Assembly (NCBI RefSeq): GCF_044324875.1
Contig: NZ_CP172185.1
DNA from: Escherichia coli
GTDB lineage: Bacteria; Pseudomonadota; Gammaproteobacteria; Enterobacterales; Enterobacteriaceae
Reading direction: 5' to 3' (one strand)
DNA: 64,000 bases
In this document: piece after piece, positions 58,001 to 64,000 of the stretch
Numbering within the stretch: position 1 is the stretch's first letter
Layout of the letters: the number at the start of each line of letters is the position of its first letter
Program-made: the position numbers

Positions 58001-61000
58001 GGTTAGTCAGCTTCTTGTCGAACTTGAGCTGAAGGATCTTAAAACAGGTTTCCATAGTGCTCCTGGATTTTCTCTTTCTGGACATTGACGTCTCCACTGG
58101 TTTAAACACGGCAATGGAGACTGTGGTGAAAAGAGTTAATTCCCGGAGTGACTGGCAGGATGCCAATCAATGATCGGAAGCATGCCAAATCGTGATCGAT
58201 TGTGATGCCAAACTGTGATCGGAGATGGATGCCAAATCATGATCGATTCGAATGCCAAACTGCGATCGATTCAGATGCCATTTTGCAACTGCCGTAAAAC
58301 ATGGCAACTGCAGTTCACTTACACCGCTTCTCAACCCGGTACGCACCAGAAAATCATTGATATGGCCATGAATGGCGTTGGATGCCGGGCAACTGCCCGC
58401 ATTATGGGCGTTGGCCTCAACACGATTTTACGTCACTTAAAAAACTCAGGCCGCAGTCGGTAACCTCGCGCATACAGCCGGGCAGTGACGTCATCGTCTG
58501 CGCGGAAATGGACGAACAGTGGGGCTATGTCGGGGCTAAATCGCGCCAGCGCTGGCTGTTTTACGCGTATGACAGGCTCCGGAAGACGGTTGTTGCGCAC
58601 GTATTCGGTGAACGCACGATGGCGACGCTGGGGCGTCTTATGAGCCTGCTGTCACCCTTTGACGTGGTGATATGGATGACGGATGGCTGGCCGCTGTATG
58701 AATCCCGCCTGAAGGGAAAGCTGCACGTAATCAGCAAGCGATATACGCAGCGAATTGAGCGGCATAACCTGAATCTGAGGCAGCACCTGGCACGGCTGGG
58801 ACGGAAGTCGCTGTCGTTTTCAAAATCGGTGGAGCTGCATGACAAAGTCATCAGGCATTATCTGAACATAAAACACTATCAATAAGTTGGAGTCATTACC
58901 GTGTTCCCGACAGACGACTCGGTGAAAAAAGTGGTGTGGCTGGCAATCCAGTCTGCGTCCCAGAAATGGACGATGCCGTTGAAGGACTGGCGAATGGCAA
59001 TGAGCCGCTTTATTATCGAGTTCGGTGACCGCCTGGACGGTCACTTCTGAGAAAAGGCATTTACACAGAATCCTAAACAGGCTCATTCAGACAGCTTTTT
59101 ATTTCACTATGGCTATCCCAGAACAATCAGTACAAATAATAAAAGACATATCACAGCAACACTCCACACTGACAGCGCAAAAATAAATGCCGCCTTTGTT
59201 ATCTTCATATACAAGCAACCTGTCCTGATAATCACCAGCTCATGTTTTATTCTTAACCATTCGTCACAAATACAACAAAAAATAACAGCAGCAGCACCGA
59301 TATCACAATATAAGATACATTATTCAACACCTGAATCCCCCGCCGCTTCTCTCCCCTTTATAAAACGCCCCTTCCGGAATCCAGACCGCTGCAGTGCACG
59401 ACGAAGATGACCGTATACCGTCTTGTCATTCTGCCCCGTCTCTTCTGTAATCTCCGCAATACTTAAACCTCTGTAATACCGGTTCAGTACCGCTCTGCGC
59501 TCTTCCAGCGTCAACACACCTCCGGCCGCTCTCAGATTCAGCATCGACTTATTCAGAATACAGCAGGCCTCTCCGGTAAAAAGAATACGAACAATATCTG
59601 TATACTCATCATCACAGAATACAAAATAATATCTGAATGACCTGCCTGACTGCACCCTTCTTCTGTCTGATATGGCATCTTCTATATATCTGATTCGACT
59701 GCTTACGGTTCCAAATATCTCTCGCAGGGCTTTTTCAAAATAAATATCTCTCGTCGCCAGGATTATATCCAGCATCTCTGTACCTCATTATATCCCGGGG
59801 GACTCCCCCCGGGACAGATATCTAAATCCTGACCTGTCAGAACTCAAAATTCACACCAGCATTCCACGATGCGGATGACCCACCTGCAGCAACTGCAACT
59901 TTTCCTGCCACATTCTCTGTGAAACGGTAGCCCACGCCCACCGCAATGGCCTGCTCATCACGGTAACCACCAACGGCTGCTGTCGCGTTAAATTTTCCAA
60001 CACTGTATGGCTGGAAAAGACCTGCCAGTGCCGCGCTCTGGGCTGCACTCTCCCTTAACTCCTTCCGGTTCTCTTTAATCTGCTCCTGCATATTATTCAT
60101 TCTCTCTGTCGCCATCTTCTGCCAGGCTTCCGTCAAATCCAGACGATGACTGTTATTCCTTATCGCTGCTGTATTTGAGGCTATTGCTGCATCCGTCTGC
60201 GCCCTGTTCTTCACAAGCACATCGCTGAGATGTTCTGCCTGGCTTTTCGCTTCTTTACGGGCATCCCGTACACTTTTATCTGTATAAGCCCGGGAAACCT
60301 GAACTGTTTCATCCGCTTTTTCTTTTATTTCATCCTGAAGAGCAAGAGAAGATGCATCCGTATACGCCACCGCTGCCGATGTGCCTGCAATAATATCCCT
60401 GCTGAGTTCATCACGTACTGCTGTAACCTGACTGTCAGTATGAGCACGGGCATCTCTGTATACACCGCCTATCTCACCGCGCAGACTGTCTCCCTCTGCC
60501 TTCAGTTCATCACGTACTGCTGTGACCTGACTGTCAGTATGAGCACGGGCATCTCTGTATACACCGCCTATCTCACCACGCAGACTGTCTCCCTGTGATT
60601 TCAACTCATCACGTACTTTGTTCGTCCCATCCTTTATCTCATCCTGAAGTGCAAGCGCTGTTACATCTGTATACGTCACCGCTGCCGATGTGCCTGCAAT
60701 AATATCCCTGCTGAGTTCAGCATGAACTGTTGAAAGACGTTTATCTGTCTCGTCAATTCTTTCATTCGTCTGCAACAAAAAGACCTGTGCATCATCAAAT
60801 CGTTCATTCAGTTGCCCTACCGTCGCTGCATCTGTGTTATTGATACCATCAGACACATTTATAATCCGGCGGGTTTCCGGTGCTCCTTTGACACTCTCTC
60901 CATATCCCTCAGGCCCGGCACCAACAGATACCACGTTATTTTCTCCCGACACCTGTGAGCCATGGCCCAGAGCTACAGAACTGGTAGAATCCTGCACAGA

Positions 61001-64000
61001 TGAAAACGCACCAATTGCCGAGCTCTGACGAGAAGAAATAAGTGACGCTTCTTTTCCTGCAACAGTCCCCCATTCAGAGTCAGCAATAAGTGCATCATGC
61101 CCCAGACTCACACTTCCCGGAGAGTTCACAACATCAGAATTATTCCCCAAAAGCACAGTCCTGTTTGAGTCTAATAAAAAAGAATCATCACCAATCAACC
61201 ATACATTTCTTACTTTATCAATCGAACGGCCAGCTACTGATTCTCCAACAAGAAAGCTATTATCTTCGCCAGGTTCAATCGGTCCGAATAAAATATCCTG
61301 AGCCTGAGCCTGAGCCGAGAGCAGCAGGGCCACACTCACTGCCAGCGCGCTTTTCTTTAAAAAAGCATCACGTCTTTTAAGCATTCTGTTATTCTCCTGT
61401 ATTATTACTTCACCAGCCAGAACGGTAGTGCGGAGCAAAAATACAGTGATAAGAATCCTCTTTTATTAATTTAATAATGCCAGGAATATTATTGTGTATA
61501 ATATGCGCCTTCAATTTAAGCAGCAGAAAAGCAATGACGCGAAAATCATTAAAATACATACAGATAAAACATCATAACTATAATTATAATAAGCGCGCTT
61601 ATTTTAGCATCTGAACATTTAAAGTACTGCTATCACAAAACAATAAAAATCCTGGGTAATATCTCTGATGATTGAATGAGAAATTCACGATGTCTGGTGA
61701 GAATTCTGTTCAAAACGAGGAATGCAGACATACATGTGGCAGGCATGGACTTCCACCGATTTAACTTTTTTCCTTCCTTGTATTTACACATCACACATTT
61801 TGCGCTACAAAAATTTCACGTGGCACGCACCACGTGATCCGTAGAAAAGCCTCTTGTTACGAATTTCGTAAACCGCACGTCTGTCTGGTCGTGCGGATTT
61901 TTTATCCGTCAACTTCACATGAAACCGCCAGATCACTGTTTCCGGATTCAGACATCAGGCATATTATCATCCACAATGTCGTGAACAAGATCACACTTTT
62001 GCAATTCCTTTATTGATCGAAAGCAGTTAATCACGGAAATTAATTACCGGAGTGAAAGCATTACTGCATCGTAAATATCTACCATTTTTGACTACACCCT
62101 CTGACAGAATTTTCAGAGGGTTTTTTATCAGTTTCACCATCCAACCCTGTACGCCAGAATGGTTTCACTGTCACTCAGTTCTGCTATTGCCTTTTTCATC
62201 TCCCTTTACCTTACGTTCTGCCAGAGTCTGAGCCATTTGAACAGGAGGTTATCATTGATATCGTGTTCCCGGGCAATACGGGCAACAGAGGCTCCTGGTT
62301 GCAAAACCAGTTTAACCATTTGAAGTTTAACTCATTTGAAAATGATCTGCGGGGTTCTGCGGATAATGTTTTTGCTCCATAACAGGCGCCCACCAGTTTG
62401 AAAAGGTGGGCACCTACGTTACCAATACTGGCTTAATGGATACATACGGCGGTCGGTTCTTACGGTAAAACGACACAACCAAACGCTTCTTATCCTGCAA
62501 TGAACTGCTTTATTACCGAGTTTAGTGACCGCACAGACACTCACTTTTAAGAAAAACAGAATGGTAAACAAACTCCATGAATTACAATAGCTCTCTGGCT
62601 GCCGCCACAATAGCTTGCGCGGTTAACCCGTACTCTCTCTGTAAAAAGTCCTGAGTTTCAACCTGGCCATACCGCTCTTTAACCCCCACCCGACGCATGG
62701 GCACAGGACAAGTTTCTACAAGCACTTCAGCAACTGCTGAACCTAATCCATTATGAATACGGTAATGACTCCAATTAGTTGAATTAGGAGTATAATAGCC
62801 ACTTTTAAGGTTCTTTCATGGTCACAGTTAACCTTCATTGCTCCTGTTGCCAGTCCGTTCAGGTTTACCGTCACGGGAAGAACCCAAAGGACATGATCGA
62901 TTTCGCTGCCGTGACTGTCATCGAGTGCTTCAGCTCACTTACCGTTACGAGGCCCGTAAACCGGGAGTTAAAGAGCAAATCACTGAAATGGCTTTCAACG
63001 GTGCCGGAGTTCGCGATACTGCCCGTACGCTGAAAATCGGCATTAATACTGTCATCCGGACTTTAAAAAACTCTCGCCACGAAGAATAACGTCATACCCG
63101 GTCGCTCATGCTGATATGGCACTCATCTGCGAACTTGATGAGCAATGGAGTTTTGTCGGCAGTAAAGCGCGACAGCACTGGCTCTGGTACACGTACAACA
63201 CGAAAACTGGTGGCGTTCTGGCCTACACTTTTGGCCTACGGACTGATTAAACCTGTCGTGAATTGCTGGCGCTGCTTGCCCTTTTACCATCGGTATGTTG
63301 ACCACTGACGAATGGGGTAGTTACACCAGAGAGTTACCGAAGGAGAAGCATCTGACTGGTAAGATTTTTACTCAGCGCATTGAGCGCAACATCTACCTCT
63401 GAGAACCCGAATCAAACGTCTGGCCCGCAGAACTATCTGTTTCTCGCGCTCTGTAGAACTTCATGAAAAAGTCATCGGTGCCTTTATCGAAAAATATATG
63501 TTCTACTAATTGGAGTCACCACCTTCGTTTGTTTAAAGAACCTGCTGGTCCTGCCATTAATATTACCTGCTGATTGCTTCACATCCGGATTCCTCGCACT
63601 GCGCGCGGGTTATTGTTTCGTTTTCGGCCACGGGGTCGCCAGGGCTCTGTTTGCAGGCCATGATGGCCTGACCTGTACTGTTTCTCAGGCACTGAGATGT
63701 CCGTTTACGCCATTTGTTCCCGGATATCCTTAACCTCTGACGTTTGTTCCCTGCCCCTCTGTCTGATAACGAATACGCTCACAACGCACAGTACTGAACA
63801 ATACCGACAACAACATGTCTTACATGAAATTCGCTGTAACATCCACCGGAAAACATTTTCAGATATCGGATGAGGTACTACTTCCATTGACAGCGCGAGG
63901 TAACAAAATTGATGGTAACTCTGACCATTAACCGTAAACCGCAGGGTATTTTCAGTAAATCACCGGCAACGCCGCTGCAGGATAAAACGGACACAGCATA

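Follow-up and report, generated by a model that had tools for sequence, protein, structure and literature searches.

YadA of Yersinia is the model for a class of trimeric autotransporter adhesins with a head-neck-stalk-anchor plan, and members of this class are encoded at several kinds of locus in Escherichia coli. The Eib proteins – 392 to 511 residues long, and including EibA, EibC, EibD and EibE, which are encoded in prophage cassettes of E. coli ECOR-9 – are associated with non-immune binding of the Fc of IgG and IgA and with serum resistance through their coiled-coil stalk. Downstream of each eib gene, the Eib records show a terminator hairpin, then a gene designated ORF-156 and another designated ORF-60; the ORF-156 proteins have no Pfam match and are annotated as "hypothetical", and literature searches for ORF-156 gave nothing specific. 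Saa, the YadA-type autoagglutinating adhesin (534 residues) that Shiga toxin-producing E. coli encode on plasmid pO113, has a stalk with tandem repeats that are visible in alignment, and the number of its 37-residue units varies between strains. Here, we describe a YadA-type adhesin gene and its neighbour, a gene for a 151-residue protein with a helix-turn-helix (HTH), located in 64,000 nucleotides of E. coli DNA (RefSeq assembly GCF_044324875.1, contig NZ_CP172185.1; the whole stretch is referred to as the window). Very probably the two genes form an accessory trimeric autotransporter adhesin cassette, with a variable stalk, a variable head and a paired HTH protein, carried on an E. coli genomic island.

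The adhesin gene is intact and of a well-known trimeric-autotransporter kind, and it appears not to have been studied by anyone; literature searches for this gene, or for a named island adhesin, found no specific paper in the library covered. An upstream in-frame TTG would extend the reading frame to 59837-61438 on the minus strand (533 residues), whereas the ATG at 61384, which gives 515 residues, has AGGAG about 8 nt on its 5′ side and is the start used in the RefSeq relatives. A reading made from the sequence alone (the sequence-only reading) had proposed a 515-residue adhesin with a YadA-type anchor, to be checked against hidden Markov models, and this proposal was borne out: the C-terminus matches the full length of the Pfam model YadA_anchor (PF03895; model positions 1-60 of 60, E 3.5e-16), and a neck motif is found by YadA_stalk (PF05662, E 2.9e-5). 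The match to YadA_head is weak (E 0.3), and with the NCBIfam YadA model the protein scores 72.6 bits relative to a cut-off of 750. Solved structures that match it are the YadA anchor (2lme, E 2e-17) and SadA head/neck fragments (E 4e-7), and the plan is that of YadA, with an overall identity of just 23-24%. The anchor is unchanged in every aligned homologue, and no difference is seen in the C-terminal 143 residues of the 12 homologues aligned. A protein that is 100% identical throughout (P0012) is present in one E. coli chromosome.

The predicted architecture, with an anchor of four beta strands per monomer and a passenger composed of head, neck and stalk, is that of a type Vc autotransporter. 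A Sec-type signal peptide would take the adhesin to the periplasm, and three of the C-terminal four-strand anchors would assemble one 12-strand barrel, through which the passenger would be exported. The passenger is expected to resemble a "lollipop", in which a neck joins a small beta-roll head to a long coiled-coil stalk of hendecad-like (3.67-residue) periodicity. The signal peptide region is unchanged across the adhesin alleles, and from its sequence the hydrophobic core looks Sec-type. The extreme N-terminus, KRRDAFLKK (61355-61384, minus strand), is like a twin-arginine motif with one additional residue, and a truncated plasmid copy of the gene (L001 5975-6559) is named 'Tat pathway signal sequence protein' (Tat, twin-arginine translocation) by RefSeq; there is no Tat-signal family among the NCBIfam matches at E <= 0.01.

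The stalk contains the two near-identical 33-residue repeats that had been noted from the sequence alone, and the expectation that they would make the adhesin variable in length is confirmed among its homologues. Tandem Repeats Finder (TRF) reports a period of 99 bp with 93% matches and a score of 377; between the two complete units, 60405-60503 and 60504-60602, identity is 95%. The 99-bp array is enclosed between the copies of a less exact direct repeat of 106 nt (60321-60426 and 60630-60735, 86% identity), such that the layout is A-B-B-A′. When lengths were inspected in the best 120 of 1513 homologues they were seen to form two series, of 482, 515 and 548 residues and of 480, 513 and 546 residues, each represented in many contigs; alignment shows that members of a series differ by exactly one 33-residue unit. 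The repeats are thus not invariant, with 0, 1, 2, 3 or 4 copies in different homologues, and in the 4-copy forms two of the copies lie directly after the neck. One protein (P0001) is ~100% identical to that of the window except for a third unit, and at least some unit changes are therefore recent. Every length change is in frame; the variation is one of length and not of on/off switching.

The unit size is also compatible with the predicted structure of the stalk. The repeat units have a peak of hydrophobic periodicity at 3.67 residues, and in the adjoining non-repeated stalk the peak is at 3.61-3.66 residues. Because 3.67 is the spacing of a hendecad (11/3), 33 residues correspond to three hendecads, and gain or loss of a unit would keep the coiled coil in register. 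The 99-bp unit would grow or shrink through unequal recombination or replication slippage, and such changes would alter only the distance between head and membrane, by roughly 5 nm per unit.

A second form of variation, in the head tip, adds to what the sequence-only reading had observed. When the window protein is aligned with a common 513-residue form (P0063), residues 29-135 are 37% identical and the other 408 aligned residues are 100% identical. Just two classes of head tip are found among 104 cluster representatives (60 clusters and 44 clusters), and these are 39% identical to each other. At the DNA level, homology to strains TUM10828 and L26 and to a plasmid stops at 60977-60979 and restarts at 61299-61301, with 97-99% identity on the upstream side of the breaks and at least 99% on the downstream side; in TUM10828 the downstream break comes after a short stretch (60845-60977) of only 77% identity. 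With breakpoints this sharp at both ends, the head variation is, as read from these alignments, a block exchange of the predicted exposed tip. The tip would be swapped between the two classes by recombination in the flanking identical sequence, and the swap probably alters ligand or antigenic specificity.

The coordinates of these and the other features of the locus are listed in Table 1.

Table 1. Features of the adhesin locus, in window coordinates, with the basis for each assignment.
Feature	Coordinates	Strand	Basis and remarks
Left scar: IS256-family transposase 3′ end and terminal repeat, cut on its left by IS1	58901..59055	+	RefSeq annotation
Putative single-pass membrane peptide, 31-40 residues	59113..59235	-	Open reading frame, hydrophobic; in the position of ORF-60 in Eib cassettes; speculative
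Gene for 151-residue protein, truncated receiver-like domain and HTH	59320..59775	-	Remote homologue of Eib-cassette ORF-156
GC-rich hairpin, 11-bp stem, between adhesin stop codon and HTH gene	59791..59816	-	RNA fold -30.9 kcal/mol, z -2.9
Trimeric autotransporter adhesin gene, 515 residues (stop codon included)	59837..61384	-	Open reading frame; RefSeq name 'YadA-like family protein'
YadA-type beta-barrel membrane anchor, residues 457-515	59840..60016	-	Pfam PF03895
99-bp (33-residue) tandem stalk repeat, 2.2 copies, length-variable segment	60405..60617	-	TRF
Neck and start of stalk, residues 173-194	60803..60868	-	Pfam YadA_stalk; aligns with SadA neck fragments 2yo0 and 2yo3
Hypervariable head tip, residues 29-135	60980..61300	-	Two allele classes; the window has class A
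Putative signal peptide, about residues 1-29	61298..61384	-	Basic n-region, hydrophobic core and AQA motif, read from sequence
AT-rich non-coding upstream region	61385..62247	-	GC 0.32-0.42
22-bp palindrome, TAAAATAAGCG followed by CGCTTATTATA	61585-61606		10 of 11 positions complementary, no spacer
Sigma-70-like site, TTCAGA-18-TATTAT, the sole match on the adhesin strand	61615-61586	-	Consensus match; ~200 nt 5′ of the ATG
orfA-type transposase N-terminal scar	62248..62423	-	RefSeq 'transposase, frameshifted, incomplete' at the equivalent position in all relatives
Right scar: about the last 17 codons and terminal repeat, IS256-family	62497..62575	+	Conserved in all relatives

The 151-residue protein encoded downstream of the adhesin had been called a LuxR-type regulator, which is approximately right as a description of its predicted fold and departs from the family that Pfam assigns. 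Residues 87-130 match Sigma70_r4_2 (E 4e-7) together with several other HTH models, and GerE/LuxR (PF00196) is absent from the Pfam matches. A single-sequence AlphaFold model was unusable, with a predicted local distance difference test (pLDDT) score of 37, and the model considered here was obtained with AlphaFold2 from an alignment combined with the ORF-156 family (pLDDT 77; predicted template modelling score, pTM, 0.76). In this model an alpha/beta domain of ~85 residues precedes three helices, and the best full-length fold matches in the PDB are RcsB (5vxn, E 3e-3), FixJ, StyR, EvgA and VpsT; the HTH alone superposes on region 4 of extracytoplasmic function (ECF) sigma factors at 0.7-0.9 Å. 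The AlphaFold database contains E. coli and Salmonella proteins of 150-180 residues with the same fold, at template modelling (TM) scores of 0.64-0.75, and some of these are labelled LuxR family. Among these, uropathogenic E. coli reference strains encode proteins of 158-160 residues with this two-domain fold (for example, Q1R2W1 in UTI89 and A0A0H2V4I0 in CFT073; TM 0.64-0.75, ~21% identity), which are labelled LuxR family or sigma-70 region 4.

In common with NarL/FixJ regulators such as RcsB, the 151-residue protein has an HTH with an LT..E / KTV signature and an Asp at the end of strand 3 (D55), and this Asp is invariant. It differs from them in its short overall length and in its receiver-like part, which has only the ~85 residues noted above, ends after the fourth and fifth short strands, and has T8-R9 in place of the acidic pair after strand 1. 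The set of residues that makes up a complete phospho-accepting receiver – acidic pair, Asp, Thr/Ser and Lys – is not found in the protein.

Alignment identifies the 151-residue protein as a remote, full-length collinear homologue of ORF-156. ORF-156D can be aligned with it from end to end, at 22% identity (BLASTP E 2e-4 over 147 residues), hhalign with a 17-member ORF-156 alignment gives a probability of 95.3% (E 2e-8, 130 columns), and phrog_6585 – the same family as ORF-156 – is matched independently through the N-terminal domain (E 3.3e-4). The relationship was found through synteny only, because homology searches were uninformative: the window's family is a single 90%-identity cluster, a word-indexed search for homologues recovered only sequences that are 94-100% identical, either full-length or fragments, and an exhaustive HMMER search otherwise gave only fragments and weak HTH matches.

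The two genes are closely linked in the E. coli population. The occurrence query comprised the HTH gene and the anchor-encoding 3′ part of the adhesin gene, and among 5426 complete E. coli genomes both are present in 183 (~3%), all of them chromosomal copies and all at least 99% identical. In 163 of the 183 the two parts are contiguous, and a single genome has as many as 8 matching places. Poultry isolates (such as BEN2908 and avian pathogenic E. coli, APEC, O2-211) are numerous among the carriers, which also include human isolates. No plasmid in PLSDB has the whole adhesin gene; pNDM5_LS003 carries a truncated N-terminal adhesin fragment, accompanied by the upstream region and by the same island genes on the right, and the Saa-bearing plasmids are matched only in a transposase stretch.

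The cassette resides on an island. In every genome examined the right flank contains the orfA scar, the IS256-type tail, a transketolase scar, IS1, a ProQ pseudogene, a hypothetical gene, and AlpA-like and Gp2/YagK-like genes; GTPase, DUF932, antirestriction, RadC and CbtA/YeeU genes lie farther to the right, and these right-flank genes are the backbone of a CP4-type genomic island. A scan of the window for a tRNA gene that could be the island insertion site found none. Strain TUM1886 (L002, L012) has two copies of the cassette, with different head classes, at two chromosomal sites: copy 1 is beside an fdrA / xanthine permease / carbamate kinase block, as in the window, and copy 2 is beside the aerobactin genes. 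The two TUM1886 islands have backbone genes in common and different cargo.

Comparison with Saa, Eib and UpaG-type adhesins had been recommended from the sequence alone, and it identifies Eib as the nearest, through the anchor and the partner gene only. The last ~70 residues of the window protein are ~75% identical to EibD, residues ~398-490 are 57-62% identical to EibA, EibE and the phage GER2 adhesin, and at the DNA level the last 245 nt of the gene are 73% identical to eibD and eibA (window 59841-60082). The gene order – adhesin, hairpin, ORF-156 homologue – is also that of the Eib records, and some NCBI and non-redundant (nr) database entries for near-identical proteins are named 'immunoglobulin-binding protein'. 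These features could suggest an Eib-type immunoglobulin-binding protein, with the Fc binding and serum resistance that this implies, and we regard this as improbable. Overall identity to EibD is only 31%, similarity to Eib is confined to the last ~120 residues, and the head and most of the stalk are unrelated; the protein does not cluster with EibA-H, lacks the Eib N-terminal domain, and fails to match the EibD fragments in the PDB at E <= 0.01. A 27-residue stalk segment that is conserved in all four Eib-type proteins aligned (EibA, EibD, EibE and the GER2 adhesin), and that lies in a region reported to carry IgG Fc-binding residues, has no counterpart here. The Fc-binding residues published for EibE (D378 and Y388) are numbered in a way that mismatches the precursor and cannot be mapped onto EibE unambiguously, so the comparison is one of segment absence. 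In a 2025 preprint, EibG-like adhesins without the conserved Fc-binding residues, ClaA and ClaB, are reported not to bind IgG Fc (10.64898/2025.12.25.695649).

Other differences from Eib concern the cassette as a whole. Eib loci are on prophages and the window locus is on an island; ORF-156 of Eib has no Pfam match, whereas the window's 151-residue protein still scores as an HTH; and ORF-60 is not recognisable in the window. A small open reading frame in the corresponding position, which has no RefSeq annotation, falls within the block conserved in all genomes (block start 59085); as an ORF-60 homologue it was rejected, the similarity being not significant (E 0.17).

The window protein also fits the description of the Cla/Yal adhesins, with which it was compared by description only: these are EibG-related lollipop adhesins that are not members of the Eib family, have no Eib N-terminal domain and are encoded in distinct genomic contexts (10.64898/2025.12.25.695649). 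They come from Shiga toxin-producing E. coli that are negative for the enterocyte effacement locus (LEE), which distinguishes them from the largely poultry and human extraintestinal or commensal carriers found here. Saa is similar in size, YadA-type and repeat-bearing, but it is plasmid-borne, its anchor is not Eib-like, and its repeat unit is unrelated in sequence to the window's 33-residue unit; identity of the window adhesin with Saa was rejected, as the two are 25% identical over 380 residues and DNA similarity extends for at most 53 nt. The closest relative found outside E. coli is a 316-residue YadA-like protein encoded on the Enterobacter cloacae plasmid pM12X01451 (42.6% identity), which has the same style of signal peptide, head base, neck and anchor, and differs in having a very short stalk without 33-residue units. 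It is followed by an ORF-60-like peptide of 43 residues (L013 3950-4081, E 6e-5), and an ORF-156-like gene was not found there. The YadA-family adhesin eYadA of avian pathogenic E. coli TW-XM (Vet Res 2026, PMC12955052) is another gene: it encodes 338 residues at the cueR-ybbJ locus, its downstream genes are unrelated, and identity is 23% over 160 residues.

The region upstream of the adhesin is very AT-rich, as had been noted from the sequence alone, with a GC minimum of 0.32 at 61450-61749 relative to ~0.5 in the flanks. It is 97-99% conserved on the 5′ side of every allele, including that of plasmid pNDM5_LS003, and the eib upstream regions have no DNA similarity to it. The palindrome overlaps the -10 hexamer of the sole promoter-like site, and on its sequence it is a candidate operator. 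A terminator-like hairpin (61816-61837, minus strand; TCACGTGGTGCGTGCCACGTGA then AATTTTTGTA) is located ~430 nt upstream of the adhesin start, where it could shield the adhesin promoter from transcription that reads through from the insertion sequence (IS) scars. An Rfam scan of 58800-62800 matched no family, with one chance-level match (E 0.72). At the other end of the adhesin gene, where Eib loci have a canonical terminator hairpin, the intergenic hairpin of the window lacks a clean U-tract and may be a partial terminator or an RNA stabiliser.

The 151-residue HTH protein is most likely a transcription factor linked to adhesin expression; we infer this regulatory role from its fold and position. 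Its target could be the promoter region of the cassette, which is AT-rich and probably silenced by H-NS, or it could instead tie adhesin expression to another programme. MrpJ, PapX and EcpR/MatA are the paradigm for cross-regulation at fimbrial operons. By analogy, the HTH protein would not regulate the adhesin locally; it would be made together with the adhesin and would repress motility or another surface programme, a reading that we consider possible though doubtful. Its gene follows the 3′ end of the adhesin gene, past a hairpin that would permit some read-through and in the same place as ORF-156 in Eib, and its conservation at 99% or more in the 183 genomes despite the swapping of heads would fit a target outside the variable cassette. 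Yet there is no significant relationship to EcpR or HyxR, both of which were rejected as sequence relatives (hhalign probabilities of 3.4% and 0.3%, respectively), and a palindrome over the cassette's own promoter-like site fits local control equally well.

The sequence-only reading had also placed related transposase C-terminal fragments on both sides of the cassette and concluded that it was probably delivered by an IS. Both tails are present and related, with the qualification that the right one is reduced to the ~17 codons and terminal repeat given in Table 1; the delivery itself is unsupported. The left tail is a 49-codon C-terminal fragment (58901-59050, plus strand) that RefSeq assigns to the IS256 family; a stretch identical to this scar is present in TUM1886 and TUM9803, and the scar aligns with an IS256-family element of SCU-115. 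The right scar is in the same orientation and is 80% identical over 59 nt to 58997-59055. Two IS256-type 3′ ends in direct orientation, some IS256-family end at the left junction in every genome examined, and the occurrence of the cassette in several places in a genome are what would be expected if the adhesin and its partner were cargo of a composite transposon, of whose two IS256-family copies only the tails are left.

That origin is nonetheless unlikely, to about the same degree as immunoglobulin binding of the Eib type. With only 80% identity, the tails are not two copies of one element, and no intact IS pair or target-site duplication is recoverable at the locus, the outer end having been removed by IS1; the locus thus shows neither the paired copies nor the target duplications that define a composite transposon. 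The ~80-nt right tail is fixed in all relatives together with at least ~1.5 kb of conserved flank (ProQ, AlpA-like and Gp2-like genes), so that the unit which was duplicated or moved is larger than the IS-bounded interval. The left junction behaves differently. Homology between genomes begins there at 59085 (59056 in the two closest relatives), and the genomes examined have three different IS256-family configurations: in the window it is the 150-bp tail cut by IS1, in SCU-115 and L26 it is a different, frameshifted IS256-family element (a RefSeq pseudogene of ~1.2 kb) with 46 extra bases, and in TUM10828 it is a short scar of the same end, inverted. These configurations point to repeated later insertions and not to a single delivery, and by their sequences the left junction has clearly been remodelled on more than one occasion by IS256-family activity.

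Several other elements lie next to these scars. An IS100 (istB 55748-56746 and istA 56520-58166, minus strand) is nested within a copy of IS1, the right part of which is at 58215-58885, and this IS1 truncates the IS256-family element whose tail is at 58901-59055; in TUM9803 the IS1 is intact and without IS100. Tandem repeats of 23 and 47 bp (consensus ATGCCAAACCGTGATCGATTCG) at 58158-58291, just past the istA start, have a position that suggests putative multiple terminal repeats of the IS100 end, as in the IS21 family. On the right, a 47-codon remnant of a transketolase-family C-terminus (62582-62725, minus strand) lies between the IS256-type scar and IS1, and is conserved in all relatives.

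A number of points weigh against an active adhesin cassette with a dedicated HTH partner. As the hairpin between the two genes has no U-tract, it is uncertain that they are co-transcribed. The receiver-like domain of the HTH protein derives from a model with a pLDDT of 77, for which the PDB matches are weak (TM ~0.3-0.4, with E 3e-3 at best), and no relatives beyond E. coli were found by HMMER at E < 1e-3 in 1.84 billion representative proteins. The periodicity peak in the repeat units is partly forced, being a 33/9 harmonic of the duplicated unit, and 27 of 1000 shuffles equal its power; the hendecad argument is carried by the neighbouring non-repeated stalk segments. Finally, the cassette could be silent.

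This last point raises the prospect that the cassette is a cryptic relic – intact on paper, transcriptionally silent and functionless at present – with its variation reflecting neutral recombination, an interpretation that we consider rather unlikely, though less so than immunoglobulin binding or transposon delivery. Its surroundings are heavily decayed: IS100 lies within IS1, which lies within an IS256-type element, and there are frameshifted transposases and pseudogenes for transketolase and ProQ; in several relatives the adhesin is interrupted by IS3 or IS5 or is truncated, and an AT-rich promoter region is typical of H-NS-silenced DNA. However, the reading frame is intact in most carriers, the C-terminal 143 residues and the segments used in the occurrence query are conserved to the extent given above, and none of the length changes disrupts the frame. 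Selection on a functional, surface-exposed protein would be expected to give what is seen here: heads are replaced only at the exposed tip, and the remainder is perfectly conserved. We favour an accessory adhesin cassette, with variable stalk and head, that presumably functions in adhesion.

The current understanding of trimeric autotransporters is not overturned by this locus. What is modestly new is that the partner gene is homologous to ORF-156. This suggests a common adhesin-plus-regulator module, and for a gene family left unannotated beside Eib genes since 2000 it offers a first hypothesis that can be tested. We put forward tentatively, and with somewhat more confidence than the cross-regulator reading, that an adhesin, an ORF-156-like HTH protein and possibly a small membrane peptide constitute an old mobile cassette common to Eib prophage and island loci, in which the ORF-156 family are dedicated truncated-receiver HTH regulators of the adhesin. 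If this is true, ORF-156-family regulators would switch on the adhesin or couple its display to another programme such as motility, and the window copy, which still scores as an HTH, would be the first functional handle on a family (phrog_6585) listed as of "unknown function". The near-isogenic adhesin alleles, which differ by having 1, 2 or 3 units of three hendecads or only in the 107-residue head tip, represent a natural experiment, and this allele set permits tests of reach and of tip specificity in adhesion through capsule and O-antigen layers.

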